From an uncultured Actinomycetota bacterium (lineage in GTDB: Bacteria; Actinomycetota; Acidimicrobiia; Spongiisociales; UBA5794), in assembly GCA_963836085.1 (NCBI GenBank), contig CAWIHT010000014.1, positions 296,773-360,772 of the forward strand: 64,000 nt of DNA, in the 5' to 3' direction. Position numbers and translations under genes: made by a program. Shown one piece after another: positions 42,023 to 64,000 of the stretch. The notes under the pieces are model-generated. The model was given only the letters and a program-made list of their open reading frames with translations, was not told the origin of the DNA and did no database searches. The first letter of the stretch is position 1, and each line of letters opens with the position of its first letter.

Positions 42023-42043
42023 AACGAACAGAGAGGCCGCCCC

Positions 42044-45378: not shown

Positions 45379-45470
45379 ATGATACGGATTCGGCCAGCCA
45401 AACACCAACGGAAGGGCCTGCGGATGCGGGCGCTCCAAGGCTCCCCCGCCGCCAGCCCGAGGAGGCGTCC

Positions 45471-47486: not shown

Positions 47487-47558
47487 GTCTTCGCCTCTCC
47501 CACGCAGTGGGCGAGGCGCGAGCACCGGCCGCCAGGCCGGAGCGCAGCGGAGGGGGCT
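47487..47558 (+). repeat. Partial copy (B module) of the palindromic repeat family
   Basis: gtcttcgcctctcccacgcagtgggcgaggcgcgagcaccggccgccaggccggagcgcagcggagggggct. Confidence 0.7.
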
Positions 47559-47996: not shown

Positions 47997-48700
47997 GAGG
48001 CCCCCTCTGCGATCGAGCAGCCGCTCGATCGCGTCTCCCCCACCTGACGGCGGTGGAGACGAAGACCTGTCTTGGCCTCTCCCACGCCGTGGGGGAGGCG
48101 CGAGCACCGGCCGCCAGGCCGGAGCGCAGCAGAGGGGGCTCACGGGGATTGAATCACCAAGATGTGGTCTCGCGTGTGGCGAGATGCCCCCTCTGCGATC
48201 GAGCAGCCGCTCGATCGCGTCTCCCCCACCTGACGGCGGTGGAGACGAAGACCTGTCTTGGCCTCTCCCACGCCGTGGGGGAGGCGCGAGCACCGGCCGC
48301 CAGGCCGGAGCGCAGCAGAGGGGGCTCACGGGGATTGAATCACCAAGATGTGGTCTCGCGTGTGGCGAGATGCCCCCTCTGCGATCGAGCAGCCGCTCGA
48401 TCGCGTCTCCCCCACCTGACGGCGGTGGAGACGAAGACCTGTCTTGGCCTCTCCCACGCCGTGGGGGAGGCGCGAGCACCGGCCGCCAGGCCGGAGCGCA
48501 GCAGAGGGGGCTCACGGGGATTGAATCACCAAGATGTGGTCTCGCGTGTGGCGAGATGCCCCCTCTGCGATCGAGCAGCCGCTCGATCGCGTCTCCCCCA
48601 CCTGACGGCGGTGGAGACGAAGACCTGTCTTGGCCTCTCCCACGCCGTGGGGGAGGCGCGAGCACCGGCCGCCAGGCCGGAGCGCAGCGGAGGGGGCTAC
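47997..48700 (+). repeat. Tandem array of about 3.8 near-identical copies of a 186-bp composite palindromic unit
   Basis: Unit boundaries at 48001, 48187, 48373 and 48559 (period exactly 186). Each unit carries hairpins gcgatcgagc/gctcgatcgc, gtctccccc…ggtggagac, cctctcccacg/cgtgggggagg, ccggcc/ggccgg and tctcgc/gcgaga, with the closing inverted repeat gccccctctgc/gcagagggggc. The period is divisible by 3, which creates spurious long ORFs in all frames. Confidence 0.85.
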
Positions 48701-50060: not shown

Positions 50061-50127
50061 GCGTGCTCCTTGTCCGCTCGGCCCCTTCTAGGCCGATTCG
50101 TTCCGGTGCGCATTGTAGGCACATTCA

Positions 50128-50141
50128 GATCATCGATTATC
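50128..50141. promoter_or_regulatory. Instance 3 (reverse complement) of the TCGATAATCGATGA motif. It overlaps the putative -35 of a TACAAT promoter for the Gfo/Idh/MocA gene and lies ~75 nt upstream of the PHP gene.
   Basis: +strand tcatcgattatcgt. On the minus strand: acgataatcgatgatctgaatgtgccTACAAT. Confidence 0.4.
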
Positions 50142-50212
50142 GTTTGTGTGGAATTGGCGGCGATTCACCGTGTACCATCCCCCTCGGCGGGCCACCAACC
50201 TTGAAGGGCACC

Positions 50213-51121
50213 ATGAGCGACTCCCATCTCCACCTCTACCCCCATCGCAAGGGCGACCCCCTGCCCGCTCCCCCGCCGACGACCTACCGACTCGACCATA
50301 TCGAGGCCTACGTCGACAAAGCGATACGCCGCGACGTTAACGAACTCACCTTCACCGAGCACCTCTATCGGTGCGTCGAGTCCGAGGAAGCGATCGGCAA
50401 TATCTGGGAACGCGCGTCCGACCCGACCATCCGCTCCAACACCGAGTACGACCTCCTCGCCGATCGCACGATGTCGCTCGAGCGATACGTCGAGGTCATC
50501 ACAAAGGCCAAAGATGCGGGTCTTCCCGTGCTGTTGGGCCTGGAGGTCGACTTCTTCTCCGACAACATCGAGGCCGTTCTCGAGCTCATCGAACCATATC
50601 CGTGGGATGTGCTGCTCGGTTCGATCCACTGGATCGATGGGTGGTGGTTTGACCGGGCCCACTCCGAGTTCGAGTGGGAACGCCTTGGGCCGCGCCGCGT
50701 CTACGAGCGCTACTTCGAACTCCTGTCCGAGATGGCCGCGTCTGGAACCGTCGACATCATCACGCATCCCGACCGGGTCAAGTACCTCCGCAAACCGTTC
50801 CTCACCGAGCAGACCGACCTGTACGCCGGTTTCCTCGCGGCAGCGCAGCAGACCAACATGGTCATCGAGATCAACACCGGGGGCCTGCGGCACCCGGTGC
50901 ACGAGATCTACCCGTCGCCGATCTTCATCCGCATGATTCACGAGGCCGGTCTCGCGATCAGTTTCGGGAGCGACGCCCACGCCCCGAAGCAGGCAGCGTG
51001 GGGATTGGACCTGGCCAGGGAGGAAGCTGCCGAAGCCGGCTTCACCCACCGCGCCCGGTTCGTCGGCCGGGAGCGAACGATGGTTCCATTCGAAGCCCCA
51101 CCCCAGTCGTTCACCGACTGA
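50213..51121 (+). CDS. PHP-domain histidinol-phosphatase family hydrolase
   Basis: MSDSHLHLYPH…FTEH…GLEVD…GSIHW…ITHPD…GSDAHAP metal-ligand pattern of the HisK/PHP family. Confidence 0.8.
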   Translation: MSDSHLHLYPHRKGDPLPAPPPTTYRLDHIEAYVDKAIRRDVNELTFTEHLYRCVESEEAIGNIWERASDPTIRSNTEYDLLADRTMSLERYVEVITKAKDAGLPVLLGLEVDFFSDNIEAVLELIEPYPWDVLLGSIHWIDGWWFDRAHSEFEWERLGPRRVYERYFELLSEMAASGTVDIITHPDRVKYLRKPFLTEQTDLYAGFLAAAQQTNMVIEINTGGLRHPVHEIYPSPIFIRMIHEAGLAISFGSDAHAPKQAAWGLDLAREEAAEAGFTHRARFVGRERTMVPFEAPPQSFTD

Positions 51122-51131
51122 CGGCGACACC

Positions 51132-51968
51132 ATGCGACTCTCCTTCAAGACGCGACCCCAACACAGCGAGTGGCAACCGATCGTCGACTTCTGGAAGGAA
51201 GGCGACCGGATCGACCTATACGACGCGGGGTGGACGTTCGACCACCTCGATCCCATCTTCAGCGATCGCTCGGGACCGGTGTACGAAGGCTGGACGATGC
51301 TGGCCGCGCTGAGCGGGATCGTGCACCGGCTTCGACTCGGCGTGCTCGTAACCGGCAATACCTACCGGCATCCTTCCGTCCTCGCCAACATGGCGTCGAC
51401 GCTCGATGTGGCATCCGGCGGGCGTCTCGAGATCGGCCTGGGCACCGGCTGGATCGAACCCGAGCATGTCGCCTACGACATTCCGCTTCCGTCGTGGAAG
51501 GAACGCTTCGACCGCCTGGAGGAGACGTGCGAGATCCTCCACCTGCTCTTTACCGAGGAGATCACGGACTTCGACGGGCCTTTCCATCGCCTCGAGAACG
51601 CGCGAGCCTTGCCGAAGCCGATCCAGAAGCCCCATCCCCCGATCGTCATCGGCGGCACCGGCGAGAAGCGGACCCTACGCATCGCCGCCCTGTGGGCCGA
51701 TCAGTGGAACCTGCCGGGAGGCGACCCCGACATGCTCCGTCACAAGATCGGGGTGCTCCACGCCCACTGCGCGGATGTCGGGCGCGATCCTGCCGAAATC
51801 GAGGTCTCGGCGAAGCTGGCGGCCGACGGCGATCCGGCCGAACTCGCGGACCTGGTCGGAGCCTTCCGCGAAGCCGGCGCCGACCACATCATCGCCATGT
51901 TCGAAGCCCCCTTCGATCCCGCACGGCTCGGCATCGTCGCCGAGCACCTGGAGCCGGTCATCCGTTGA
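51132..51968 (+). CDS. LLM-class F420-dependent oxidoreductase
   Basis: Luciferase-like TIM-barrel signatures (RLEIGLGTGW, IVIGGTGEKRTLRIAA). Confidence 0.85.
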   Translation: MRLSFKTRPQHSEWQPIVDFWKEGDRIDLYDAGWTFDHLDPIFSDRSGPVYEGWTMLAALSGIVHRLRLGVLVTGNTYRHPSVLANMASTLDVASGGRLEIGLGTGWIEPEHVAYDIPLPSWKERFDRLEETCEILHLLFTEEITDFDGPFHRLENARALPKPIQKPHPPIVIGGTGEKRTLRIAALWADQWNLPGGDPDMLRHKIGVLHAHCADVGRDPAEIEVSAKLAADGDPAELADLVGAFREAGADHIIAMFEAPFDPARLGIVAEHLEPVIR

Positions 51969-52029
51969 GGGAGCTACCAGCTGCCAGCCACCAGCAAGAG
52001 GCGATCCAGCCGCATCTTCGCGCTTGAAG

Positions 52030-52108
52030 CTCCCAGAGCCCCCTCCGCTGCGCTCCGACCTAGCGGCCGGTGCTCGCGCCTCCCCCACTGCGTGGGAGAG
52101 GCGAAGAC
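52030..52108 (-). repeat. Partial copy (B module plus linker) of the palindromic repeat family between convergent genes
   Basis: gagccccctccgctgcgctccgacctagcggccggtgctcgcgcctcccccactgcgtgggagaggcgaagac. Confidence 0.7.
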
Positions 52109-52128
52109 ACGTCGGGCTCGTAGCTCTC

Positions 52129-53172
52129 CTACGGCTCGATGATCACTTTCAACGCACCGTCTCGGCGCTCGTTGAAGGTGTCAATGGCGGTGCGGAAATC
52201 GTCGAGGGGGAAGGTGTGGGTGTGGAGTTCGTTCACGCGGATGCGTCCGTCCGATACGAGCGGCATCGCCCGGCGCATTCCGCCGGCTGTTGCTCGAACG
52301 CCGACCAGTTCCTTCTCGTAGAGCACGAGATCCTGGAGCGAGAGGGTCACATCCTCGACCGGGATACCGACCGAGGCACATCGCCCGCCCTTGTGGAGCA
52401 TGGCGAGCGCCCAGCGGTAGGAGTCCGGCACGCCGGCGCAGTCGAGCGCCACGTCGGGCCCGATGTCGTCGGTCATCGCTCGCACCGTCTCGACCGGATC
52501 ATTGACGGCGTAGTCGACCGTCTCGTATCCCAACTCGGCAGCCTTCGCGAGGCGCTCACCGCGCCCCACCACGATCACCCGTCCGGCGCCAAGCGCCTTC
52601 GCCGCGTCACAGGCCAACAGACCCACCGGTCCGGGACCGAGGACGACCACCGTTGCACCGGAACTGATATTGCCGCGCTCGGCCGTGTGGAGGGCGATCG
52701 CTGCCGGGTCGAGCAAGGCGCCCTCGTGAAAGCTCATCTCGTCCGGCAAGTGGAAGACCGATTTGACGCCGTGGACGACGTACTCGGCGAAGGCTCCCTG
52801 CCAGTTGTGCCCGTACTGGCGATGCACATCGGTGTTGCCGTAGTTCTCGCACAGGTTGTAGCGACCCTCGACACACTTCTTGCAGAACCCGCACGCATCG
52901 TGCGAAGTGCCGGCGACGCGATCACCGACCGCGAATCCGAGGGCGGCGGCACCCTCGCCGAGTTCGCACACCACACCGGCCCACTCATGGCCGGGGATGA
53001 ACGGATATGACGGTGGCCAGAAGCCCGGGTAGTCGCCTCGCAAGAGGTGGGCATCGGTGCCACAGATCGTGATGGCCTTGACGCGGCACAACACCTCCTG
53101 CGGCCCGGGAGCCGGCTTCTCGACATCTTCGATGCCGAACTCGTCGGGACCAGTGAGCACTAGAGCCTTCAT
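52129..53172 (-). CDS. Zinc-dependent alcohol dehydrogenase (MDR family)
   Basis: ATG at 53172 (MKALVLTGP). Catalytic Zn GHE motif (GHEWAG), structural Zn Cys cluster CGFCKKCVEGRYNLC, GPGPVG Rossmann. Confidence 0.9.
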   Translation of the reverse strand: MKALVLTGPDEFGIEDVEKPAPGPQEVLCRVKAITICGTDAHLLRGDYPGFWPPSYPFIPGHEWAGVVCELGEGAAALGFAVGDRVAGTSHDACGFCKKCVEGRYNLCENYGNTDVHRQYGHNWQGAFAEYVVHGVKSVFHLPDEMSFHEGALLDPAAIALHTAERGNISSGATVVVLGPGPVGLLACDAAKALGAGRVIVVGRGERLAKAAELGYETVDYAVNDPVETVRAMTDDIGPDVALDCAGVPDSYRWALAMLHKGGRCASVGIPVEDVTLSLQDLVLYEKELVGVRATAGGMRRAMPLVSDGRIRVNELHTHTFPLDDFRTAIDTFNERRDGALKVIIEP

Positions 53173-53185
53173 GAGCAGTCCCCGC

Positions 53186-54076
53186 CTAGAGCATCGCCAC
53201 CGGATCGACCATCGATCCGGTCGCACCCTTGATCTTCAGCGGGAGCATCACGAAGAGGAACTCGTACACCTTGTCGCGGGCGATCTCTTCCAGATAGATG
53301 CTCTCGAGCAGGTAGATCCCGTTCTCGATGAGCAGCTTGGTGTGAACCGGCTGCGGGTTCGCAGGCGATCCGCGGTCCGGCGTCGGCATGACCTCATAGG
53401 TCTCCGTGTCGGTTCCGGTCGCGACCACGCCCTTCTCCAGCAGCCACTCGGCGGCGGAGAGATCGGGGCCGGCCGTCTTGTGCTCCGCCATCGCCTCGGC
53501 ATCCGGCCAGTACTTGAGATAGCCGGTGCGGATCAACACGACGTCCCACGGCCGAATCTCGACGCCCTGTGCGTCTGCGATGGCTTGCAGTTCGTCGGCT
53601 CCGATCGGTTCGCTCGACGGCAACGCGTCGATACCCCGGTAGGCGGGCGGATCGAGCAGAACACCCCTGGTGAAGAACGGCGGGAGATGCGAGGCATCGC
53701 CGACGATCGGACCATGGTCGGTGAGGTGCTCGGCGGTGTTCCCTCCGCCGTACCAGTGGTTGTCGTCGCCGATCGTCATGTGACCGAGACCATCGATGTG
53801 GGCGCCCGAGTGCGAGCACGCCATGATGTACTCGGCCATGTAGCCGAGGCCGACCTCGTTCGGCGGGCCCCACGGCTGTACGCCGCCGGCCTTGATGCCG
53901 GGAGGCGTCCGATAGTTGAGAACCTGGAACGGCGGATGGCCTGGGAAGAGCGGCATCCCGGTGAAGCGAGGCACCGACAACGAGTAGGAGCGGCCCTCCT
54001 TCACCATCTGCGCTGCTTCGACCACCTTCTCGGCCGGCATGTCCCTCACAGGACCGACGTGCTGAATCTCACTCAT
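53186..54076 (-). CDS. Cyclase-family metal-dependent amidohydrolase (kynurenine formamidase / isatin hydrolase-like)
   Basis: HSGAHIDGLGH (HxGTHxDxPxH-type) motif; 296 aa. Its start overlaps the stop of the Mo-subunit gene. Confidence 0.8.
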   Translation of the reverse strand: MSEIQHVGPVRDMPAEKVVEAAQMVKEGRSYSLSVPRFTGMPLFPGHPPFQVLNYRTPPGIKAGGVQPWGPPNEVGLGYMAEYIMACSHSGAHIDGLGHMTIGDDNHWYGGGNTAEHLTDHGPIVGDASHLPPFFTRGVLLDPPAYRGIDALPSSEPIGADELQAIADAQGVEIRPWDVVLIRTGYLKYWPDAEAMAEHKTAGPDLSAAEWLLEKGVVATGTDTETYEVMPTPDRGSPANPQPVHTKLLIENGIYLLESIYLEEIARDKVYEFLFVMLPLKIKGATGSMVDPVAML

Positions 54077-56325
54077 GACTCCTGCTCCCTCATGGCTTCC
54101 CACACTCGCTGGGGTGTCAGCGGCAGATCACGGATGATCAGCCCGGTGGCGTCGCGAACCGCCGCTCCGACGGCCGGCGCCGTGCACAACAGGCTTCCTT
54201 CGCTGACTCCCTTGACCCCGTAGGGCCCGGGTCCGTCGTGATTCTCGATACTCGCGCTGATCAACTCGATCGGCAGGTCCTTGCTGGTTGGGATCCGGTA
54301 GTCGATGGCGCCCAGATTCCTGGTGCGGCCCTCTTCGTCGAGGATGTATCCCTCCATCAGCGAGTGGCCGAGGCCCATGATCGCTGCGCCGTCGTCCTGC
54401 CCGTGCACCTGCTGCGGGTTGAGGGCGGTTCCGACGTCGCCGACGGTGACGTGCTTGATGATCTGGATCTCACCCGTCTCGTCGTCCACCGTTGCCTCGA
54501 TCGCCGTGCAGTTGAATTCGAAGAACGCTGCCGAACCCGCGAGCGGGTGGCCCGGCACCTTGTCTTTGCGCATCTCGCCGTTGCCGATGACTTCTCCACC
54601 GAGCGGCCCGAGCCCCGCTGTGACCACGTCCATGATCGGCAGGTCTTCGCCCGCCATTCGGACGACGCCTCCGTCGACCTCGATCTCGGATTCGTCCACA
54701 TCGTGGACCCTTGCGGCCATGGTCTTCACCTTGCCGTGCACGTCCTTACAGGCTCGGTAGACCGACGTGCCCATGAGGACCGTCGACCGGCTTGCGGATG
54801 TCTGCTGGTCGTAGGGCACGGTGGCCGTATCACCCATGATGACATTGACGTTCTCGAGGGGAATGCCCATCTCCTGCGCGACAATCTGCGCGAACACCGT
54901 CCTGGCGCCCTGGCCCATGTCGGACGTCCCGCTGAAGAGAATCGCACTGCCGTCGGCCAGCAGGCGGACCGTCGAATAGGACAGACCGGTCGTCGGACCG
55001 GACTTCAGTCCGAGCGCGACTCCACGGCCGTGACCCTCGGGGAGTGGCGTGTCCCAGCCGATCAGTTCCGCGGCCTTGTCGATCGTCTGCATCCACTCGC
55101 CGTCGGCAGGTGTGTCTCCCGGCACGAATTCGTAGCCCTTTTCGGGGATGTTGCGACGTCTGATCTCGAACCGGTCGATGCCGAGTTCGAGCGCGGCTTC
55201 GTCCAACGTCGACTCACGAGCCCACGTGATCTGGGGAACGCCAAATCCGCGGAATGCGGTCGTCGGTGCCGTATTCGAGAGGATCGTCCTCCCGATGATC
55301 TTCACGACCGGGACCTTGTACGGGCCGGCCGCCACATAGGACGACTTGCTCGCGACACGATCTGCGATGTCGACGTAGGCGCCAATGAGGTAGTTCGTCT
55401 CGATGTCCTTGAACACCATGATGCCATCGTTGGTCAACCCCATCCGAACGCGAACACGGGTTGACGGACGGCGCACGGCCTGGAAGGTCTCTTCGAGCGA
55501 CATGATCAGCCGGACCGGCCGTCCGGTCTTCAGCGCCATGTAGCAAACCAGCGGTTCGAGCTTCGGATGCTGCTTGCCTCCGAAACCGCCACCGGGATCC
55601 GGAGCGAAGACCCGCAGCTTCGACAGCGGGATGTTGAGCAGCTTTGCGAGCGTCTTCTGGAGCTGGAATGGATGCTGGATCGTGCTCCAGACATTCAGTT
55701 CATCGCCGTCGGGCTGCGCGATGAACGCATGCGGTTCGATGGCGAAGTGGGTGATCATCGGGAACTCGTACTCCCGCTCGATCACGAAGTCCGCATCCGC
55801 TTCGACGTCCGCGATGTCGCCCCAGCCGAAGTTGATCTCGGTCTTGATGTTCGTGTTCGCGAACGGTTCACCAACCCGCAGCGACGGGTCTTGCACGAGC
55901 GGAGCATCGGGGGCGAGCGCCGCATCGATCGTGTGGACGTTCGGCAGCACCTCGTACTCCACGACCACGGCGGCAGCGCCTTCCTCGGCGGCCTCCTTCG
56001 TGTCGGCGGCCACGGCGGCCACCGGCTCGCCGTGGTAGTTGACCGTACCGACCGCCAGGACCGGTCGGTCCTGATACTGAGGTCCGAAGCGCGGCATCGG
56101 CGTCGGCAGGTCGTCAGGGGTCATGACGAGCCGGACGCCCGGCACCTGCTCTGCTTTCGTCGTGTCGATCGAGATGATCCTTGCCTTCGACTCGTCGATT
56201 GTGACGAGCTTGGCGTGGAGTTCGTCAACGAGATGGACGTCTGCGACGTACTCCTGCGCGCCGGTGACGCGGTCGCGGCCGCCGACGCGGTTCGGCGAGG
56301 ATCCGACGAACGTGTTCGATGTCAT
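54073..56325 (-). CDS. Xanthine-dehydrogenase-family molybdopterin-binding large subunit (CoxL/XdhA-like)
   Basis: ATG at 56325 (MTSNTFVGSSPNRVGGRDRVTGAQEY). AFRGFGVPQ motif, Ald_Xan_dh_C and C2 domains. The ORF-track N-terminal extension to 56676 is antisense/overlap read-through. Confidence 0.9.
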   Translation of the reverse strand: MTSNTFVGSSPNRVGGRDRVTGAQEYVADVHLVDELHAKLVTIDESKARIISIDTTKAEQVPGVRLVMTPDDLPTPMPRFGPQYQDRPVLAVGTVNYHGEPVAAVAADTKEAAEEGAAAVVVEYEVLPNVHTIDAALAPDAPLVQDPSLRVGEPFANTNIKTEINFGWGDIADVEADADFVIEREYEFPMITHFAIEPHAFIAQPDGDELNVWSTIQHPFQLQKTLAKLLNIPLSKLRVFAPDPGGGFGGKQHPKLEPLVCYMALKTGRPVRLIMSLEETFQAVRRPSTRVRVRMGLTNDGIMVFKDIETNYLIGAYVDIADRVASKSSYVAAGPYKVPVVKIIGRTILSNTAPTTAFRGFGVPQITWARESTLDEAALELGIDRFEIRRRNIPEKGYEFVPGDTPADGEWMQTIDKAAELIGWDTPLPEGHGRGVALGLKSGPTTGLSYSTVRLLADGSAILFSGTSDMGQGARTVFAQIVAQEMGIPLENVNVIMGDTATVPYDQQTSASRSTVLMGTSVYRACKDVHGKVKTMAARVHDVDESEIEVDGGVVRMAGEDLPIMDVVTAGLGPLGGEVIGNGEMRKDKVPGHPLAGSAAFFEFNCTAIEATVDDETGEIQIIKHVTVGDVGTALNPQQVHGQDDGAAIMGLGHSLMEGYILDEEGRTRNLGAIDYRIPTSKDLPIELISASIENHDGPGPYGVKGVSEGSLLCTAPAVGAAVRDATGLIIRDLPLTPQRVWEAMREQES

Positions 56326-56798
56326 TCCTTCCCCGCCTTCGCGGCCACGAGGACCGCCTCGGTGATCTGCAGGTACCCGGCGCAACGACAGAGGTTCCCG
56401 CCGAGAGCCTCGTGTACGTCGTCGATCGTCGGGTCTGGATTGCTCTGCAGCAACGCGTGTGCCGACATCAGCTGTCCCGGGATGCAGAACCCGCACTGCG
56501 GGGCGCTGACATCGAGGAACGCCTGCTGGAGCGCACTCAGGTGCCCGTCGACGGCAAGTCCTTCGACACTGGTGACATCCCGTCCGTCGACTTCGACGGC
56601 GAGCATGAGGCACGAGTTCATCGGGATGCCGTCGACGACGACCGTGCAGGCCCCGCACTCGCCAACCACGCAGCATTCTTTGGTGCCGGTGAGTCCGAGT
56701 TGGTCGCGAAGAACGTCGAGCAGGGTGTGGTTCGGTGCAACCTCAAATGAGCGATCGCGCCCGTTGATGGTTGCTTCGATCTCAATCAGTTCGCTCAT
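56322..56798 (-). CDS. (2Fe-2S)-binding small subunit of molybdenum hydroxylase (CoxS-like)
   Basis: CVVGECGACTV plant-type and CGFCIPG…CRCAGY second 2Fe-2S motifs. Confidence 0.9.
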   Translation of the reverse strand: MSELIEIEATINGRDRSFEVAPNHTLLDVLRDQLGLTGTKECCVVGECGACTVVVDGIPMNSCLMLAVEVDGRDVTSVEGLAVDGHLSALQQAFLDVSAPQCGFCIPGQLMSAHALLQSNPDPTIDDVHEALGGNLCRCAGYLQITEAVLVAAKAGKE

Positions 56799-57667
56799 GA
56801 CACTCCTTGCAGTTCCTGCAGGCGCTCGATGGCCCTGCGGATGGCCCGGGCGCCGAGCACCCGCAACATCGCCTGTCGATAGTCCGGACTGGCCCGCATC
56901 GAGCGTACCGACGGACTGGCGTCGGCGAAGATCTCCTCGAGCACCTCGGCCTTGGCCTCCTTCGAGGCCGCGGGATCCGCGAGCACACCGGTATCGTCGG
57001 TCCGGAGGAAGGCACGGGGCCCCACGCTTCCGAACGCAACCTGGGCGACACCGGCGTCGTCGACGGTTGCGCAGAGCGTCACCGATGCCAGGTCCGTACC
57101 CTTTCTACGCGTCATCCGCTCGTACGCGCCGCCGAGCATCCGCGTCGGCGTGGTGAGCTCCAGAGCGATGGCGAGTTCGCCCTCCTGGAGATCGGTCTTC
57201 CCTGGGCCGACAATGAAGTCGTTGATCGGTATGCGGCGCTGTCCGCTGGGACCGGCCACCACGATGACCGCTTCATACGCCAGGAGCGGAGGCGCGGTGT
57301 CGGCCGCGGGTGAGCCGTTGCAGATGTTGCCGAGCAGGGTCGCCCGGTTTCTGATCTGCACCGAACCGACCACGACCGCTGCCTCGACGAGTGCCGGGAA
57401 GTGCTTGTTGATCCCCGGGTCATTGACGATCTCGGTCATCGTTGCCGCGGCGCTCACCGTCAACGTGTCTCCGTCCCACCTGAGGGTCGGGTACAGCTCG
57501 ACGATCCGCTTCAGGTCGACGACGACCTTCGGCTGGCGGTACCGGTCCCGCATGGCGATCACCAAGTCGGTTCCGCCCGCGAGAATCTCGGTCTCCGAAC
57601 CACTCGCAGCAAGCACCTGAAGCGCCTCGTCGAGCGACTCAGGACGTTCGTAAGAGAACTCCTTCAT
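56795..57667 (-). CDS. FAD-binding medium subunit of molybdenum hydroxylase (CoxM-like)
   Basis: FAD_binding_5 (AGGTDLV) and CO_deh_flav_C domains. Confidence 0.9.
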   Translation of the reverse strand: MKEFSYERPESLDEALQVLAASGSETEILAGGTDLVIAMRDRYRQPKVVVDLKRIVELYPTLRWDGDTLTVSAAATMTEIVNDPGINKHFPALVEAAVVVGSVQIRNRATLLGNICNGSPAADTAPPLLAYEAVIVVAGPSGQRRIPINDFIVGPGKTDLQEGELAIALELTTPTRMLGGAYERMTRRKGTDLASVTLCATVDDAGVAQVAFGSVGPRAFLRTDDTGVLADPAASKEAKAEVLEEIFADASPSVRSMRASPDYRQAMLRVLGARAIRRAIERLQELQGVS

Positions 57668-57688
57668 GTCGTCACGCTTTCTCGATTG

Positions 57689-58576
57689 TCAGATGACCTT
57701 GTCGACCTCATCCATCAGCGCCTGCGGATTGGCGGCACGAATCATGTAGAACTTGCGGGGACCGCAGAAGCTCTCTGTGAAGTCGGCCCGCGCTTGGCGC
57801 AGCGCCTCGGTGTCCGTCAACGGCATCGTGTGGCCCGGTGCCAGCAACTCGTTGGTGAGGAAGTAGTTCTGGAGTGAGTGGAAGTTCTGGAATTGTGCCT
57901 CGAACTGACCGAGTTCGGAGGTCGTCGGATCGAAGTTGCCGTCGATAGCGGGAACGATGACGATATCGACGTTGCTCGGCTCGTCGTAGTCCTCCCACGT
58001 CGGCATTTCGTCACCGAAGAAGATCTGGGCGCCACGCTCGGGAGCGGCCTTGTCGGCCCGCTCGGTGCCCTTGGCCCGGCTCTTGATGAAGACCGTCTTG
58101 GATCCCATGATCACGGTTCCGGTCTCGTCGATCACCGTGGTCTCGGTGGAGACGAGCTTCCCGCCGCGCCGGCAGGCTTCGATCTGGCACATGCTCTTGC
58201 CGTGGTTGGATTCTCCGCCGAGGAACAGGACCGTCTTGCCCTGGTAGCGCACGGCAGACGAGTGGAACGGATGCAGGCCCTCGGCCTCCATGCGCAAAGC
58301 GAGCACGGTGACGATCGCCTTCTGGATGGGGCCCTCGGCCCAATCGCCGTCGAAGCGCATCGTCGTGCCGTCCCACGTAACCGACTTCTCGGTTGCGTCG
58401 CGGTCCCAGACCAGATCCGGTTCGCTGAGGATGGAATCGGGCTCGAGCGTGACGTCAGCGAGGCGGTAGTTCATGAAGTCCATGTTCTGGAGCACGTGCT
58501 CGGGAACCTCGGAACCGACGACGTCGATCCGAATTCTCGCGGTGCTGGCCGACATTTCCTCGGTGAGCATTGCCAT
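57689..58576 (-). CDS. HPr-kinase/phosphorylase C-terminal-domain-like P-loop protein (stand-alone)
   Basis: FHSSAVRYQGKTVLFLGGESNHGKSMCQIEACRRGGKLVSTE aligns with the HprK_C P-loop pattern (H-G-x-V-x3-G-x-V-L-h-x-G-x-S-x2-GKS-x3-E-x3-RG-x-LV). GGAGAG lies upstream of the ATG at 58576. Confidence 0.55.
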   Translation of the reverse strand: MAMLTEEMSASTARIRIDVVGSEVPEHVLQNMDFMNYRLADVTLEPDSILSEPDLVWDRDATEKSVTWDGTTMRFDGDWAEGPIQKAIVTVLALRMEAEGLHPFHSSAVRYQGKTVLFLGGESNHGKSMCQIEACRRGGKLVSTETTVIDETGTVIMGSKTVFIKSRAKGTERADKAAPERGAQIFFGDEMPTWEDYDEPSNVDIVIVPAIDGNFDPTTSELGQFEAQFQNFHSLQNYFLTNELLAPGHTMPLTDTEALRQARADFTESFCGPRKFYMIRAANPQALMDEVDKVI

Positions 58577-58800
58577 GGTGTTCTCTCCTCAATCGGTTGT
58601 TCGTTCTCTGTGTCATCAATCCGGGCGGCACGAGGGCTCCCGGCAATCGTGATGGATCGTTCGGCCCTTCGGGGGGCATATCAGGTGCCGATCACCCGGA
58701 GGACCCTCGTCAAGTCTCGGTTCCGCGGCGCCTCATCGCTCCCGGGGGTTCTCGTTCCAGCAGTCGGCGCCGCTCCTCCCCGTGATCTCTCGGAGTGTTC
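58577..58800 (-). other. 224-nt GC-rich, hairpin-rich intergenic leader inside the operon (between GntR and the HprK-like gene)
   Basis: No ORF longer than the cut-off; contains several inverted repeats (e.g. cccggg…cccggg, gggagccctcgtgccgcccgg). Possible attenuator, processing site or cis-regulatory RNA. Confidence 0.3.
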
Positions 58801-59493
58801 CTATGCCTCAACCGTCTCCTTGCGCACCTGGTCGATGCCCTCGATGAGAACCGCAGCTTCGGCAGCGTGCTTGCGGCTCAGGTCGGCAGCGAGTTCGGGA
58901 TCTTGGTCCCGTATGGCTGCGAGCAATGGCTCGTGCCGCTTCGAGAGCCAGTGCAGATCGATGCCGGGCGCAGAAGCCGTGATGTAGGTCCGCGAGAACG
59001 GTTCGAGCATCGACCACTGCCGCTCCAACGTCGGATTGTGCGCTGCCGCAATGATTCGGGCATGGAACCGGGTGTTGTTGAGCGCCTGGTCGTGAGCATC
59101 GCCCCGATCGGCCGCCTCGTCCATGGCCTCATACAGCATTTGGAGGTCGACGATGCATTGTTCAGTGCGTCGCTCTGCGGCCAGTCGGCCACCCAGCGCC
59201 TCGAGTTCAGCGCGTACCTCGATGGCCTGCGTGAGCTCTTCGCGGGTGGGCTTGCGGACCCGGGCTCCTTTGTGGGGTTTCATCTCGACGAATCCGAGGA
59301 TCGCCAGGTCGCGGAGCGCTTCGCGCACCGGAGCTTGACTCACGCCCAGTTCGCGGGCGACCCGGGTCTCGACGATGCGAGACCCGGGCGCCAGCTCTCC
59401 TTCGAGAATCCACGTGAGAATGCGGTCTTTGACCCCTTCGGAGAGCACTTCTCTCGTCACGGGTGCGGACTGATTCTCTTGCAGATTCGTCAT
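58801..59493 (-). CDS. GntR family transcriptional regulator (FadR/FCD-type C-terminal domain)
   Basis: N-terminal wHTH (RIVETRVARELGVSQAPVREALRDLAILGFVEMKPHKGARV) and an all-helical FCD C-terminal domain. Confidence 0.9.
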   Translation of the reverse strand: MTNLQENQSAPVTREVLSEGVKDRILTWILEGELAPGSRIVETRVARELGVSQAPVREALRDLAILGFVEMKPHKGARVRKPTREELTQAIEVRAELEALGGRLAAERRTEQCIVDLQMLYEAMDEAADRGDAHDQALNNTRFHARIIAAAHNPTLERQWSMLEPFSRTYITASAPGIDLHWLSKRHEPLLAAIRDQDPELAADLSRKHAAEAAVLIEGIDQVRKETVEA

Positions 59494-59530
59494 ATCAACT
59501 CTCAGGTCCTTCTGGGACCTGCTCCTATCG

Positions 59531-61282
59531 CTAGAGGATCTCTACGACACCATTCGTACCGTCGACCCGCAGGCGGTCGCCGGTCTTGATCTCGCGGGTG
59601 GCGACACCGGTGCCGGTGACACCCGGAATGCCGAACTCGCGAGCCATGACGGCGGGGTGCGCAACCATACCGCCGGCGTCACACACAATTCCGCCGATGA
59701 TGGCGAACACCGGCGTCCAGGCCGGGTTGGTCATCTGGCAGACCATGATGTCGCCCTGCTTCAACTGGTCGAACTCGGCCGGTGAGGAGACGACTTTCGC
59801 CACGCCCTCGATGACGCCTGGCGAAACGCCGATGCCTTCGATCCTGCCCTTGGTCTCGGTGTCGTGACCAAGCTTCTCGGGGAAGCCCCAGAGGTTCAGG
59901 TAGGGGAACTGCAACTGGTCTTCAGTCGCCGTGCCGATGAAGTCTGGCGGGCGGATCATCTCTTGTTCGGCGCGCAGCGCCCGGCGCTCGGCGACGATGC
60001 TCTTGGCCTCGTAGCCCTCCGGATCGCCCATCAGATAGCGCAGCTCGTTGTAGCGGAGGAACATGACGTCGTCCGCCTCGGTCAACGCGCCCATCTCAAC
60101 CAGCTTCCGACCGATGCACATCAACACCACACGAGTGTGCTGGTGCGTGCCCTGGTCGATGTAGAAGTGGTGGTCCGGAGTGAGCGGGGCCATCTTCAGG
60201 TTGATCTCGTTCGCTGCCTTCAGGGCCTCGAGGGCGTCGCCCTCTTCGATCCCCTCGAGGAGCTCCTCGGCCGCGGCCTGAATATCCGTCGCGAGATGCG
60301 CAACGATCGGGCGATGGTCGTAGTCGGAGTCGAGGTAACCCTTGATCACGTCGAGGACCGGTTCCGGCGTCTCGAACCGTGACGGGTAGATGAACTCGTG
60401 GCTCCAGACGGCGTGCCAGCCGAACTCGCGCTGGTAGACCTTCAGGCCGGACTCGATGAAGTCGCGCCCTTCCTCGGTCGCTTCGAGTGCTGCCAGGATG
60501 TCGGCGCCGGCCTCGTTGGCGAATGCCGCCATGAGAACGGGGTCGGCCTTGATCCGATCCTTCAGGTTGACGAGCAACTCGATCGCATCCCAGTTGCGGT
60601 CCGAGGACGAGTTCTGCAGACGGCCGAGGATCTCCTCGTGCTTCTGCGTGATCTCGCCGCCGAGCGCCTCTTCGAGCGTGGCGCGCAGCGCCAGTGTCGA
60701 CGAGAGCTGCGCGAAGTTGAGCATCCAGTGGATCTTCCAGTGGCGATCGAGCATGTCGATCGCGTCCTCGAGAACCACGGCCCACTCCATCAGCGAGATA
60801 TTCTCGTAGTCGTCGATCTTCTCTTCGAGATAGGCCAGATTCCGAGCCATCTCGGGGACGAGGCGATCTCGCCACCAGTCGGGGAAGTTGGCTCCGTAGA
60901 CGGGGAGCACGGCGCCGAGGTAGGCACCGATCTTCTCTGCGTAGTCGGGATCGGCATCCGTCGGCACACGCGGCGAGTACGTAAATCCGAGTTGGACGGT
61001 CGGGACGACCATGTCCGCGTCCGCTGGGATGGCGGCTGTGAACAGGTAGCCGTTGACGACCTTGCCGATCCAGTCGGTCGCGAACGGCGTACCGAAGCGA
61101 CGGAACATGTGATCACACGTGAGCACCCAGTTGCCGATGTCGTCATACATCGGAGAGACGGGGCGCGGGCAGTGCAGATCGTCGTAGACCCAGAACAGCT
61201 TCTTCTCTTGCTCCGATTCCCAATCAACCGGGAAACTCTCGTCTCCGAAGAACTCCGCTACAACCTTGCTGTTATCTGCCAT
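59531..61282 (-). CDS. PEP-utilizing-enzyme family protein: ~500-aa uncharacterised N-terminal domain plus C-terminal swivel phosphohistidine (mobile) domain; no ATP-grasp domain
   Basis: The C-terminal ~90 aa match the PEP-utilizers mobile domain (GDIMVCQMTNPAWTPVFAIIGGIVCDAGGMVAHPAVMAREFGIPGVTGTG), with the catalytic His present but the preceding Thr replaced (VAH instead of TSH). ATG at 61282 (MADNSKVV…). Confidence 0.65.
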   Translation of the reverse strand: MADNSKVVAEFFGDESFPVDWESEQEKKLFWVYDDLHCPRPVSPMYDDIGNWVLTCDHMFRRFGTPFATDWIGKVVNGYLFTAAIPADADMVVPTVQLGFTYSPRVPTDADPDYAEKIGAYLGAVLPVYGANFPDWWRDRLVPEMARNLAYLEEKIDDYENISLMEWAVVLEDAIDMLDRHWKIHWMLNFAQLSSTLALRATLEEALGGEITQKHEEILGRLQNSSSDRNWDAIELLVNLKDRIKADPVLMAAFANEAGADILAALEATEEGRDFIESGLKVYQREFGWHAVWSHEFIYPSRFETPEPVLDVIKGYLDSDYDHRPIVAHLATDIQAAAEELLEGIEEGDALEALKAANEINLKMAPLTPDHHFYIDQGTHQHTRVVLMCIGRKLVEMGALTEADDVMFLRYNELRYLMGDPEGYEAKSIVAERRALRAEQEMIRPPDFIGTATEDQLQFPYLNLWGFPEKLGHDTETKGRIEGIGVSPGVIEGVAKVVSSPAEFDQLKQGDIMVCQMTNPAWTPVFAIIGGIVCDAGGMVAHPAVMAREFGIPGVTGTGVATREIKTGDRLRVDGTNGVVEIL

Positions 61283-61643
61283 ACGGCAAATCTCCTTCCT
61301 CGACGGACCTCCGCCGGGACCGGCCCGCAACGGGCACAATCAGACTCCGACGCTCTTGTGCGTTCTTTGAGATAGCCGACTTCTGTGTTGGTGCTCCTCT
61401 CGCTACGTCGGTCGGACCGACCCGAGGCGAAGCCCTCGGAGGGCACGGCGCGCTCGAGCCTTCAATACGGGTGGTGCGGGCATATCGAGGAGGGCGACGG
61501 CAACCATGCTCACATCCCCAACACCGCTGGAAACCCAGGCGAAACAAAGAGAATCCGCCGGACGGTCGCTGGGACCGGGAGGGGCGTCACCGAGAGAGCC
61601 ATCACCATGGCACGGTTGTTCTCGACACCTGCACGCATCATCC

Positions 61644-61692
61644 TCGATAATCGATTACTTGCAGTTTACGGCCGAGAATCGCGATCCGTCAA
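61644..61692 (-). promoter_or_regulatory. Candidate sigma-70-like promoter (TTGACG-18-TAAACT) with instance 4 of the TCGATAATCGAT motif immediately downstream of the -10 (operator-like). It drives the PEP-utilizer/Mo-hydroxylase operon via a ~360-nt leader.
   Basis: Minus strand: aagTTGACGgatcgcgattctcggccgTAAACTgcaagTAATCGATTATCGAgg. The +strand motif tcgataatcgatta is at 61644..61657. Confidence 0.35.
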
Positions 61693-61704
61693 CTTGAGAT
61701 GAGG

Positions 61705-62115
61705 CGCCAGTCGCCAGTCGCCAGTCGCCGGTTCGGGGTCGGTCGCAGGCCTTCGCCTCTCCCACGGAGTGGGAGAGGCGCGAGCACCGGCCGCCAGGCC
61801 GGAGCGCAGCGGAGAGGGCTCTGGGAGCGCGAGCGCGCAGATGAGGCCTGGCGTGTGGCGAGACGCCCCCACTGCGATTGAGCAACCGTCTTCGCCTCTC
61901 CCACGCAGTGGGAGAGGCGCGAGCACCGGCCGCCAGGCCGGAGCGCAGCGGAGAGGGCTCCTCGCCTCGACACCACCTCAATCCTGAAGAACGCACCAGA
62001 GCTCATCCTCGCGATCCCATCCCCCAGGCCGCCCCCTCTGCGATCGAGCATCCGCCCGATCGCGTCTCCCCCACCTGGCGGTGGGAGAGACGAAGACCGC
62101 GACTGGCGACTGGTC
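61705..62115. repeat. ~410-bp composite repeat block bounded by inverted heptamer tandem repeats (ccagtcg x3 … cgactgg x2); candidate MITE-like insertion
   Basis: The left end is gcgccagtcgccagtcgccagtcgcc and the right end gcgactggcgactgg (its reverse complement). Inside are two B modules (61750..61820, 61890..61960), a linker-like segment and one A module (62030..62098) of the palindromic repeat family. Confidence 0.6.
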
Positions 62116-64000
62116 TCAGTCCGCCTCGAGCTCCCCCATCGCTTTCAGGATCTTCTCCGGGGTGATCGGGAGGTCACGGATGCGCACACCGATGGCGTCA
62201 TAGAGCGCGTTCGCGATGGCGGGTGGTGTTGCGGCGGCTGCCGGTTCGCCGACACCCTTGGCACCGTACGGGGCCTCGTCATGGACCGACTCGACGATGA
62301 TCGGAACGATCGGAGGGATGTCCATGATCGTCGCGACCTTGTAGTCCGCAAGGTTGCCGTTCTCGATGCGACCGTTGTCGTATGAGAATCCCTCGAGGAT
62401 TCCATTCGACAGGCCCATCACGACGCCGCCCTCGATCTGTTGCTCGACGGTCATCGGGTTGATGGCCTTCCCGACGTCTGCGGCTGCGGCCACCTTGAGA
62501 ACGCGAATCACGCCGGTATCGGTGTCAACCTCGATCTCGGCGGCCTGGGTGCACAGCATCCAGAAGATGCTGCTCATCCACTCCTCACCGGGATCGGCCT
62601 TGAGGAGCGGCGAGTTCGCGCTCGAGAACCGCGCCCCTGCCGTGATCGAGTAGTACTCGCCGTAGAACTTCGCGAGGAGGTCCTTGAGCGTGATCTGGAG
62701 TTCGCCGTCGAGGTCGCAGATGATGCCATCGCGCATCTCGAGCGTCTCCGGTTCGACTTCGAGCACCTCGCCGGCGAGGCTGAGGACCTGTTCGCGGATC
62801 TCGCCGCCTGCGTCGAGGATCGCATTGCCCATGTGATAGGTCGTGCGACTCGATGCCACGGGTCCGTTGTACGGAGTCAACAGCGTGTCGGTGGCAGGGA
62901 CCGAGACGTCCGAGAGGGGTACGCCGATCGCGTCCGCCGCGATCTGGGCGAGCACCGTGTCCTGGCCAGAGCCGATCTCAGGGGCTGCACAGATCACTGT
63001 GGCCCGACCGTCCTGCTCGAGGTTGATCACGACGTTCGAACTCGACGGAGTCATCGTGGGCTTGATCATCGTGGCGATGCCTTTACCGCGACGCAGGTTG
63101 GGCGCCGGCTCGCGCTCGACCGATCCCCAACCGATCTCGGCGGCTGACCGTTCAATGGTCTCGCGGAGGCCGACGGAGCGCATGATCTGGCCGTTGAGAT
63201 AGGCGTCGCCCTCTTCGTACCCGTTCATGAGGCGGATCTCGACGGGATCGATGCCCAATTCGACGGCGATCTCGTCCATCTGCGTTTCGCAGGCCCAGGT
63301 GACCTGGGTCGTGCCGTACCCGCGGTACGAACCGGTGATCGACTTGTTGGTGTAGACCTGGCGGGAGAGGATCTTGAGATCGGGGATCCGATAGGGCCCG
63401 ATGATGGTCTGCGACCCGCGGATCGCGACGCCGACCGTATACGCCGTGTACGCACCGCTGTCCCAGAGGACTTCGGCGCTCCGCGCAACCATCAGGCCGT
63501 CTCGGTTGACGCCGGTCTTGAGCTTCATGATGGCGGGCACGCGCAACTGGGACGCAACCAGGTCTTCCTCGCGGGTGAACTCGACCTTGACGGGACGGCC
63601 GCCCGAATGGCGCGCCAGGGCAACAGCGATCGCTTCGGCAACGGGAACACCCTTGGCTCCGAACGAACCGCCGACCTGGGCGACGATCAGGCGGACGCGG
63701 CTGCTGTCGACGCCGAGACCGGTCGCGAGTTCATTCCGCAGCAGGAACGGCCGATCCGTGGAGACCCAGAGGGTGTAGCCCCCGGAACCGGAGTCGTACT
63801 GGGCAATGGCAGCATGCACCTCGAGCGCGACGTGGCTGATCGCGTGGGCGGAGTACTCGCCCTCCACGACGACGTCGGCCGCAGCGAATCCGGCCTCGAC
63901 GTCGCCGCGCTCATACGTATAGAGCGTGTTGATGTTGGTGTGGGGGACGATCTCACTCGGCCCCCGCTTGTAGGTGTGGAGATCGGGATGGACGAGAGGG
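62116..64000 (-). CDS. Second xanthine-dehydrogenase-family molybdopterin-binding large subunit (paralog); N-terminus lies beyond the window end
   Basis: SYRGYGTTQ motif and Ald_Xan_dh_C/C2 domains. The ORF-track start at 63867 is internal; homology continues upstream to the window edge. Confidence 0.75.
   Translation of the reverse strand, partial: PLVHPDLHTYKRGPSEIVPHTNINTLYTYERGDVEAGFAAADVVVEGEYSAHAISHVALEVHAAIAQYDSGSGGYTLWVSTDRPFLLRNELATGLGVDSSRVRLIVAQVGGSFGAKGVPVAEAIAVALARHSGGRPVKVEFTREEDLVASQLRVPAIMKLKTGVNRDGLMVARSAEVLWDSGAYTAYTVGVAIRGSQTIIGPYRIPDLKILSRQVYTNKSITGSYRGYGTTQVTWACETQMDEIAVELGIDPVEIRLMNGYEEGDAYLNGQIMRSVGLRETIERSAAEIGWGSVEREPAPNLRRGKGIATMIKPTMTPSSSNVVINLEQDGRATVICAAPEIGSGQDTVLAQIAADAIGVPLSDVSVPATDTLLTPYNGPVASSRTTYHMGNAILDAGGEIREQVLSLAGEVLEVEPETLEMRDGIICDLDGELQITLKDLLAKFYGEYYSITAGARFSSANSPLLKADPGEEWMSSIFWMLCTQAAEIEVDTDTGVIRVLKVAAAADVGKAINPMTVEQQIEGGVVMGLSNGILEGFSYDNGRIENGNLADYKVATIMDIPPIVPIIVESVHDEAPYGAKGVGEPAAAATPPAIANALYDAIGVRIRDLPITPEKILKAMGELEAD

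Follow-up and report, generated by a model that had tools for sequence, protein, structure and literature searches.

A predicted split dikinase paired with an orphan HprK/PEPCK-fold protein in a molybdenum hydroxylase gene cluster of an uncultured actinomycetotal genome and its relatives

We analyzed a stretch of 64,000 nucleotides from an uncultured Actinomycetota bacterium (contig CAWIHT010000014.1; hereafter the window), in which eight co-directional genes on the minus strand run from 61282 to 52129 with the coding bias in third-position GC content (GC3) of the surrounding genome. They encode a phosphoenolpyruvate (PEP)-utilizing swivel-domain protein (the PEP-utilizer), a GntR regulator, an orphan P-loop protein resembling HprK (the HprK-like protein), a three-subunit molybdenum (Mo) hydroxylase of the xanthine dehydrogenase (XDH) family, a cyclase-family amidohydrolase and a zinc-dependent alcohol dehydrogenase (Zn-ADH). 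With moderate confidence, we read them as a dikinase-type catabolic set, in which a split dikinase and the HprK-like protein act together with one or more Mo hydroxylases, the cyclase and the Zn-ADH, while the ATP-grasp component of the dikinase is encoded elsewhere and the HprK-like protein has a catalytic role. The genes, in order of transcription, are as follows.

59531 to 61282, minus strand: PEP-utilizer, 583 amino acids, with substrate-binding and swivel phosphohistidine domains; sole Pfam domain PF00391 (76 bits, residues 508-578)
58801 to 59493, minus strand: GntR regulator of the FadR/FCD type; PF00392 (57 bits) and PF07729 (81 bits)
57689 to 58576, minus strand: HprK-like orphan P-loop protein, 295 amino acids; HprK/PEPCK fold, no family above any Pfam or NCBIfam cut-off
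56795 to 57667, minus strand: coxM-like FAD-binding medium subunit, 290 amino acids; FAD_binding_5 (150 bits) and CO_deh_flav_C
56322 to 56798, minus strand: coxS-like small subunit with two [2Fe-2S] clusters; Fer2 and Fer2_2, Cys motifs C43-x4-C-x2-C and C102-x2-C
54073 to 56325, minus strand: coxL-like molybdopterin large subunit, 750 amino acids; Ald_Xan_dh_C, MoCoBD_1 and MoCoBD_2
53186 to 54076, minus strand: cyclase-family metal-dependent amidohydrolase; PF04199 (86.5 bits, cut-off 23.1)
52129 to 53172, minus strand: Zn-dependent medium-chain alcohol dehydrogenase; ADH_N and ADH_zinc_N

All eight genes had been named in the original prediction, and seven of them carry the families given there in Pfam and NCBIfam searches. 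The gene order proposed at that time, with the GntR gene first, is reversed: the PEP-utilizer gene leads and the GntR gene is second.

We propose that a PPDK_N (ATP-grasp) partner encoded elsewhere in the genome would pyrophosphorylate His542 of the PEP-utilizer, and that His542~P would pass its phosphate to an acidic hydroxyl group, be it phenolic, enolic or lactim, on a (hetero)aromatic substrate. The Mo hydroxylase or hydroxylases and the Zn-ADH would then oxidize the substrate, the cyclase would hydrolyze an amide or lactam bond, and the GntR protein would sense a pathway metabolite, giving metabolite-responsive control. The HprK-like protein would be a catalytic phosphotransfer enzyme of the pathway, acting on a phosphorylated intermediate or exchanging phosphate with the swivel protein, and not a substitute for the ATP-grasp component.

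The PEP-utilizer and its HprK-like partner

Pfam and NCBIfam profiles detect neither a PPDK_N ATP-grasp domain nor a PEP/pyruvate TIM barrel in the PEP-utilizer, which has the layout of an H/A component: a rifampin-binding-like domain followed by a C-terminal PEP-utilizers swivel domain. The protein aligns over its full length with the PRK08296 'hypothetical protein' models of NCBIfam (approximately 600 amino acids), and its last 380 or so residues match the C-terminal regions of rifampin phosphotransferase, PigC and RedH, in each case far below the cut-offs. Judged by its scores against the PRK08296 models, it is a distinct subfamily. Its best fold match is rifampin phosphotransferase, the only one to superpose over most of the protein. 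The protein search returned approximately 4,200 PEP-utilizer matches, possibly including other PEP-utilizer families.

In two-component small-molecule dikinases the catalytic histidine is defined by the motif T/S-x-x-G-G-x-x-x-H (PMC12167813). This motif lies near the C terminus of the PEP-utilizer, as CDAGGMVAH542 in the window, where Cys replaces T/S, and as T[DN][AST]GGxx[AS]H in other lineages. The catalytic residue is H542, within CDAGGMVAHPAVMAREF (CDAGGMVAH542PAVMAREF), and the motif is kept in all lineages examined, from Actinomycetota to Thermococcus. Taken together, domain layout, motif and predicted fold identify the PEP-utilizer as the substrate-binding/phosphohistidine component of a split small-molecule dikinase of the HpeH, CreH, PpsA and rifampin phosphotransferase kind. 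In the characterized systems the separate ATP-grasp proteins HpeI, CreI and PpsB pyrophosphorylate the swivel histidine; after loss of the gamma-phosphate, His~P transfers its phosphate to a phenolic hydroxyl (PMC12167813). Phosphorylation of a small-molecule hydroxyl, raised in the original prediction, would be the chemistry to expect by analogy with the two-component phenol-dikinase architecture of HpeH, CreH and PpsA. As an idea, phosphorylation-initiated catabolism is not new, since HpeHI, CreHI and AcvAB are dikinases already known to start aromatic catabolism in aerobes (PMC12167813).

The HprK-like protein scores 13 bits against Hpr_kinase_C (PF07475; cut-off 33.3, E=0.078) and 16 bits against TIGR00679 (cut-off 240). 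Against the PEP carboxykinase (PEPCK) profile PF01293 (PEPCK_ATP) it scores 12.6 bits where 26.5 are needed, and it has 295 amino acids compared with approximately 530-600. The HprK_C domain first assigned to it therefore falls below profile thresholds and is upheld at the level of fold and motif, whereas the PEP-utilizers, Ald_Xan_dh_C and Cyclase domains named alongside it were confirmed by their profiles. The best fold matches of the model are HprK/P, and PEPCK can be superposed on 213-230 of its residues, among them the N-terminal domain; a profile of the family compared with the PDB matched T. thermophilus PEPCK only (E=0.011). The marks of a PEP-carboxykinase-like P-loop fold are all present: a Walker A motif, G121-E-S-N-H-G-K127-S, within FHSSAV...FLGGESNHGKSMCQIEACRRGGKLVSTE, a histidine approximately 16 residues before it, and an acidic residue approximately 17 after it. 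This region parallels those of HprK/P and PEPCK.

An alignment of family members from Actinomycetota, Dormibacterota, Nitrososphaerales and Thermococcus, at 36-64% identity, contains 48 invariant positions. These include H105, G121-E-x-N-H-G-K127, E133, R137, E145, R167-x2-G-T-E-R-x-D175 and D212-G213, as well as eight Arg and the N-terminal residues R16, D18, Y37, R38 and D54, which are shared by Archaea and Bacteria. Its fold and conserved motifs mark the HprK-like protein as a catalytically intact HprK/PEPCK-fold protein.

A word-indexed search (E<=0.001) returned 2,853 proteins of this family, all unnamed and none with a Pfam domain. A hidden Markov model (HMM) scan of 1.84 billion representatives gave 205 matches, mostly fragments, with around five full-length clusters at 50% identity, and found no bridge from the family to HprK or PEPCK. 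The family has many members and narrow diversity; those that could be named come from Acidimicrobiia, Gaiellaceae, Dormibacterota, Chloroflexia, Nitrososphaerales, WOR-3, Thermotogota and cultured Thermococcus, including T. sibiricus (WP_015849898). The window's own protein is not on record in an exact look-up, and it has no tblastn match among 72,556 plasmids. Apparent gene fusions (P0246, P0267, P0290, P0295 and P0343), considered as evidence for a complex, proved to be artefacts, namely frameshifted, Arg/Pro-rich mistranslations.

A bolder proposal, which we advance tentatively and consider possible but rather unlikely, is that the HprK-like protein is a new phosphotransfer enzyme working directly with the swivel phosphohistidine protein, taking or passing on a phosphoryl group via the dikinase or its product and using ADP/ATP or phosphate/pyrophosphate (Pi/PPi). 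With PPDK_N and the PEP-utilizer it would then form a three-component activation system that extends from Thermococcus to Actinomycetota and is coupled to Mo/tungsten (W) oxidoreductases.

The fold matches to HprK/P also suggest a regulatory role, in which the HprK-like protein would be a protein kinase/phosphorylase that switches the dikinase or another pathway protein, as HprK/P does with HPr, or PSRP/PDRP with PEP synthase and pyruvate, phosphate dikinase (PPDK). The surroundings of the P-loop, GESNHGKSMCQIEACRRGGKLVSTE, parallel the HprK/P sequence, and PEP-utilizing enzymes often have their regulators encoded next to them. PEP synthase and PPDK have a regulatory Thr two residues before the catalytic His; however, this canonical Thr is absent here, and the position is not conserved, being variable among the PEP-utilizers (V, S, L, L, T, V) and Ala in the PPDK_N-swivel proteins. 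PEPCK, on which most of the HprK-like model superposes, is a small-molecule enzyme, and the invariance of R16, D18, Y37, R38 and D54 between Archaea and Bacteria suggests a ligand pocket. No HPr gene is annotated in the neighborhoods with called genes, although no targeted HPr search was made. Since the canonical site lacks a conserved Ser/Thr and most of the protein's length superposes on PEPCK, we rank a regulatory kinase below the catalytic role and judge it unlikely.

Conservation of the gene set and the ATP-grasp partner

A scan of species-representative genomes yielded 22 loci, and an HMM survey of neighborhoods covered 35. All eight genes stand in the order of the window in ten loci (L004, L005, L007, L008, L011, L012, L015, L022, L023 and L024), with protein identities as low as approximately 55-65%; this order is found in Acidimicrobiia and in metagenome-assembled genomes of Chloroflexia and Micromonosporaceae. 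The GntR gene lies between the PEP-utilizer and HprK-like genes in the Acidimicrobiia and Chloroflexia loci, while one Micromonosporaceae locus (L020) keeps the order without it. Two loci (L001 and L006) have no close ADH in the end position, and shorter contigs are concordant as far as they extend. The arrangement is far beyond chance. All related loci that extend far enough have the same order. The PEP-utilizer is invariably paired with the orphan HprK/PEPCK-fold family, being present in every surveyed locus with at least 8 kb of flanking sequence on both sides of the HprK-like gene.

The pair recurs in other settings in more distant lineages. In Nitrososphaerales there is a coxM-coxS-PEP-utilizer-coxL operon, with a divergent unit of SCP2, HprK-like and stand-alone PPDK_N (317 amino acids) genes. 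The Thermococcus sibiricus region (L033; CP001463.1, 1466195-1487085) encodes a formamidase, DUF1097, a stand-alone PPDK_N, ThiS, a cyclase, two tungsten aldehyde ferredoxin oxidoreductases (AFOR) with a ferredoxin, and DUF169, and continues with an isopropylmalate synthase (IPMS)-like protein, the HprK-like protein, a cupin, UPF0261, the PEP-utilizer and the E1 alpha/beta and E2 subunits of a 2-oxoacid dehydrogenase. A subsurface lineage has, in order, genes for an IPMS-like protein, the PEP-utilizer and the HprK-like protein (6-10 nt apart), a cupin and a cyclase. In Dormibacterota we find, in order, genes for PPDK_N-swivel, cupin, split transketolase, short-chain dehydrogenase/reductase (SDR), metallo-beta-lactamase-fold (MBL), HprK-like, coxM and XdhC proteins, with a partial PEP-utilizer at the contig edge.

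The expected linkage of the pair to a three-subunit XDH-family enzyme thus holds in all bacterial loci sampled and in Nitrososphaerales. A Mo hydroxylase is not a universal partner, however: tungsten AFOR genes take its place in Thermococcus, and in one subsurface lineage no Mo hydroxylase is encoded nearby. In aerobic lineages the pair is embedded with one or two XDH-family Mo hydroxylases, the cyclase and the Zn-ADH.

Neither tblastn nor HMM searches found a PPDK_N/ATP-grasp gene in the 64-kb window, so that the dikinase is incomplete as seen here, a point that counts against our reading. PPDK_N-bearing proteins are encoded near the pair in L014, L016, L022, L023/24, L027-29, L030 and L031-33, and in relatives the partner lies 0-20 kb from the cluster. 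A search with the PPDK_N plus swivel protein of L023 (718 amino acids) found homologues on contigs sized like those that bear the cluster (36662, 59334, 20762, 100003, 125190, 29382, 58417 and 52363). On JAJCYA010000041 (L036 and L008) the PPDK_N protein is encoded approximately 20 kb from the cluster on the same contig. In order, this contig carries genes for a cupin, Y_phosphatase3, PPDK_N-swivel, a tartrate/isopropylmalate (IPM)-dehydrogenase-like protein, E1 beta/alpha, MBL, SDR, split transketolase, a cupin and a GCAxxG protein, followed by a Liv-type ABC transporter, coxMSL-2, PEP-utilizer, GntR, HprK-like, coxMSL, cyclase and ADH genes. The ATP-grasp partner is therefore retained in the system, and in this genome its gene most likely lies outside the window.

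Many of these partners (L023 5150-7306 and homologues P0423-P0542, approximately 710 amino acids) join PPDK_N and a swivel domain (GGLASHAAVVARG) to an unassigned C-terminal region of approximately 220 amino acids that replaces the PEP/pyruvate barrel; judging from these domains, their annotation as 'pyruvate, phosphate dikinase' is probably wrong. In two contexts (L036 8417-12142 and a 125-kb JGI contig of P0493) genes for a 179-aa cupin and Y_phosphatase3, of the tyrosine-phosphatase family, directly precede the PPDK_N-swivel gene. The Cre, Hpe and Acv pathways have phosphatases too, and by analogy with these the position of Y_phosphatase3 would fit an aryl-phosphate intermediate.

The ATP-grasp component might alternatively have been replaced, with the HprK-like protein as a nucleotide- or pyrophosphate-binding donor that loads the swivel His. 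Besides the window, most Acidimicrobiia loci have no PPDK_N within 10 kb, the PEP-utilizer and HprK-like genes directly adjoin in the subsurface lineage, and the P-loop, His and acidic residue of the HprK-like protein are intact; HprK/P itself can use ATP or PPi. However, PPDK_N is encoded beside or near the HprK-like protein in Nitrososphaerales, Thermococcus, Dormibacterota and several Acidimicrobiia, and the shared contig of L008 and L036 shows that the ATP-grasp protein is retained even where it is distant. The HprK-like protein is therefore probably not the ATP module of the kinase. This weakens the two-gene kinase implied at the outset, with the HprK-like protein as its nucleotide module, and because ATP-grasp is retained we place a substitute below the catalytic role and regard it as improbable.

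The eight-gene cluster is half of a larger, widely conserved catabolic gene set. The other half in the window comprises the following.

38301-38753, minus strand: C_GCAxxG_C_C protein, 52% identical to the L036 gene product
39001-39360: cupin (co-occurring module)
39390-41206: split transketolase (co-occurring module)
41240-42022: SDR resembling KduD/gluconate-5-dehydrogenase (co-occurring module)
42044-42895: MBL-fold hydrolase (co-occurring module)
45471-47440: 2-oxoacid dehydrogenase E1 alpha/beta (co-occurring module)

Apart from the GCAxxG protein, the module genes are 68-77% identical to those of L036, and the module is contiguous with the PEP-utilizer cluster on JAJCYA010000041 and in L015, L016, L020, L022 and L023. 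E1 alpha/beta belong to the conserved set, because the T. sibiricus E1 is 44-48% identical to the Acidimicrobiia ones. In the window a gene for an MFS transporter (44087-45289) interrupts the 38301-47440 module, and the stretch between the two halves (49050-51968) holds GFO/IDH/MocA oxidoreductase, PHP-domain phosphoesterase and luciferase-like monooxygenase genes. A vitamin B6 pathway, with the SDR and MBL proteins as pyridoxal dehydrogenase and 4-pyridoxolactonase, was rejected: there is no PDB match between the MBL protein and the lactonase, NF047925 gives 27 bits against 325, and the SDR is KduD/gluconate-5-dehydrogenase-like.

Redox enzymes and the nature of the substrate

The coxMSL-like genes encode a three-subunit XDH-family enzyme, with the full domain set, the cofactor motifs, the catalytic-Glu context GVSEG and FRGFG. 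The large subunit is not a CO dehydrogenase, because the AYRCSFR (VAYRCSFR) loop of the aerobic enzyme is absent; TIGR02416 scores 235 bits against a cut-off of 991. Its PDB matches are led by 4-hydroxybenzoyl-CoA reductase alpha (1rm6_A, 331 bits), followed by 6-hydroxypseudooxynicotine dehydrogenase (255) and quinoline 2-oxidoreductase (247). 4-Hydroxybenzoyl-CoA reductase, this nearest solved relative, acts on a phenolic substrate, but the enzyme here is not of that type, because the 290-aa FAD subunit lacks the [4Fe-4S] insert, with a TIGR03195 match split in two, and the equivalog scores fall short of the cut-offs (alpha 450 against 995, under half; gamma 176 against 258). The NCBIfam models for the alpha, beta and gamma subunits of glyceraldehyde dehydrogenase give 339, 152 and 176 bits, far below their cut-offs. 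A second large subunit is encoded upstream of the PEP-utilizer.

62116 to 64000, minus strand: CoxL2, second XDH-family large subunit, running off the end of the window

CoxL2 is 34% identical to the in-cluster coxL-like protein and 86% identical to CoxL2 of L004. Five full-length relatives (L001, L004-L006 and L008) have a coxM2-coxS2-coxL2 set upstream of the PEP-utilizer, and the archaeal large subunit linked to the PEP-utilizer is slightly closer to CoxL2 than to the in-cluster paralogue. The cyclase carries the metal motif HxGxHxDxxxH as HSGAHIDGLGH; it falls short of the arylformamidase equivalog model (20 bits against 223), and its only sequence relative in the PDB is the uncharacterized 5ibz. 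The nearest NCBIfam models of the Zn-ADH, threonine 3-dehydrogenase and scyllo-inosose 3-dehydrogenase, both score below cut-off.

Along with the missing ATP-grasp gene, three observations weigh against a dikinase pathway for aromatic compounds. Thermococcus has tungsten AFOR where aerobes have the Mo enzyme; the two families have aldehyde oxidation in common, which favors an aldehyde oxidoreductase role over ring hydroxylation and makes aldehyde oxidation an alternative conserved redox step. The low scores against the PRK08296, Rph and PigC models may mean that the substrate class of the PEP-utilizer differs from phenols. Finally, the transketolase, E1, KduD-like SDR, tartrate/IPM-dehydrogenase-like and IPMS-like genes look like sugar-acid/2-oxoacid metabolism and not like aromatic catabolism. 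The context thus holds evidence both for and against a phenolic or heteroaromatic substrate, as it does for a sugar acid or 2-oxoacid. An N-heterocycle is only one possibility among several: indole/isatin, tyrosine-derived phenolics and sugar acids were weighed as substrates from context, and none has enough support to be asserted.

These observations lead to a non-aromatic explanation, in which the redox enzymes would be aldehyde oxidoreductases of a set that degrades a non-aromatic compound, for instance a sugar acid, polyol or 2-oxoacid. Like PEP synthase, the dikinase would produce an enol phosphate, which the PEPCK-like protein would use for carboxylation or ATP recovery. Besides the AFOR genes in the place of CoxMSL and the co-occurring sugar-acid-type genes, it is favored by the adjacent Zn-ADH, by the matches to the glyceraldehyde dehydrogenase models and by the superposition of PEPCK over most of the HprK-like model. 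However, all characterized enzymes of this domain architecture use phenolic/aromatic substrates or rifampin (PMC12167813), the nearest solved Mo subunits are 4-hydroxybenzoyl-CoA reductase and then N-heterocycle hydroxylases, and the glyceraldehyde dehydrogenase scores are far too low. A cyclase-family amidohydrolase would also have no obvious role. We consider this explanation doubtful, on a par with a regulatory kinase or an ATP-grasp substitute.

A role for the HprK-like protein in maturation or assembly of the Mo hydroxylase, like that of the accessory ATPases in cox clusters, is suggested by its position immediately upstream of coxM in every bacterial locus, including Dormibacterota (HprK-like, coxM, XdhC). 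It ranks below the catalytic role and is very improbable: in Thermococcus and the subsurface lineage, members of the family accompany the PEP-utilizer, a cupin and a cyclase where no XDH-family genes are present, and in Nitrososphaerales the HprK-like gene belongs to a separate unit with PPDK_N.

Cluster organization and comparison with known systems

From the PEP-utilizer to the Zn-ADH gene, the junctions measure +37, +224, +21, -4, -4, -4 and +13 nt. The 4-nt overlaps originally ascribed to the whole cluster thus exist at coxM/coxS, coxS/coxL and coxL/cyclase, three of the seven junctions, and not at the other four. Two non-coding regions are associated with the genes.

61283 to 61700, minus strand: leader upstream of the PEP-utilizer gene, whose open reading frames lack the coding GC3 bias
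58577 to 58800, minus strand: spacer of 224 nt from the GntR to the HprK-like gene, kept in close relatives

The spacer probably holds a second promoter, and suggests two transcription units rather than the single GntR-controlled operon first put forward. RNAalifold gave only a weak consensus structure for it (-10.9 kcal/mol, covariation term +0.8), and we make no claim of a structured RNA; an Rfam search of 51900-62300 had no match at E<=1. The leader contains a sigma-70-like site at 61692-61663 (minus strand); just upstream of this site, at 61705-61729, the heptamer CGCCAGT is repeated 3.6 times. A perfect palindrome, GTCGGT-CCG-ACCGAC (GTCGGTCCGACCGAC), lies at 61421-61407 on the minus strand, 125-139 nt upstream of the PEP-utilizer start. 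L001 and L006 have it at the corresponding position and L004 and L010 have palindromic variants; it is a candidate GntR/FadR-type operator, nothing more.

Inverted copies of an element of approximately 78 nt, resembling repetitive extragenic palindromes (REP), flank the eight-gene cluster, at 52029-52106, 61751-61828 and 61888-61960, with the palindromic core CGCCTCTCCCAC-N3-GTGGGAGAGGCG. It also occurs at 6480-6506, 47492-47518 and 48000-48698, and these further occurrences include 3.8 copies of a 186-nt unit that are 99% identical. The element seems to be an intergenic repeat scattered over this genome; as the inverted copies recur elsewhere in the window, we rejected them as ends of a mobile element.

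We found no description of this gene combination in the literature, in agreement with the original statement that the set has no characterized joint function. Aromatic catabolism by two-component dikinases is known (PMC12167813), and XDH-family hydroxylases, cyclases and GntR regulators are ordinary. What appears to be new is the distinct PEP-utilizer subfamily, its invariable pairing with an HprK/PEPCK-fold family that has no profile, and the embedding of the pair with Mo hydroxylases across two domains of life, pointing to a breakdown pathway common to bacteria and archaea. Dikinase-initiated catabolism has been recognized only recently, for a few phenolics in cultured bacteria; here we describe a deeply conserved, distinct branch in abundant uncultured Acidimicrobiia, Dormibacterota, Chloroflexia, Gaiellaceae and Nitrososphaerales, and in one cultivable archaeon, the anaerobe T. 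sibiricus, which offers a possible experimental entry point. Defining the reaction of the HprK-like protein would give the HprK/PEPCK fold a fourth functional type and could reveal how phosphorylation is combined with oxygen-independent Mo/W hydroxylation. The HprK-like and PEP-utilizer matches, at present called 'hypothetical protein' or, misleadingly, 'pyruvate, water dikinase', could also be annotated.

The closest known systems are HpeHI of Rhodococcus rhodochrous, CreHI of Corynebacterium glutamicum, PpsAB of Thauera aromatica and AcvAB of Sphingobium, in which the H/A component has a rifampin-binding-like helical domain and a C-terminal swivel His, as here. For HpeH, too, rifampin phosphotransferase is reported as the only structure to superpose over most of the protein. 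Further likenesses are the separate ATP-grasp protein, seen here in relatives, and the setting in a catabolic cluster that also encodes oxidoreductases and, in some of the relatives, a phosphatase. In contrast, the ATP-grasp partner has approximately 340 amino acids in those systems and is the fusion of PPDK_N, swivel and extra domain in many relatives here; a carboxylase or P450 acts after phosphorylation in the known pathways, where Mo hydroxylases and a cyclase are linked here; and the HprK/PEPCK-fold protein, constant here, is not mentioned in PMC12167813. Rifampin phosphotransferase (PDB 5fbs and 5hv1), PigC and RedH are single chains of 850-890 amino acids with an N-terminal ATP-grasp domain, which the 583-aa protein of the window lacks.

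With 4-hydroxybenzoyl-CoA reductase (HcrABC) and the N-heterocycle hydroxylases the Mo enzyme shares the three-subunit Mo/FeS/FAD organization, HcrA being the best solved relative of the large subunit; however, the insert that defines HcrB is absent, and the cluster has no CoA ligase gene. The HprK-like protein shares with HprK/P and PEPCK the P-loop alpha/beta fold and the spacing of the His and acidic residue about Walker A, but differs from them in matching no profile above threshold, in its own N-terminal domain, in having about half the size of PEPCK, and in being encoded always together with a swivel-domain protein.

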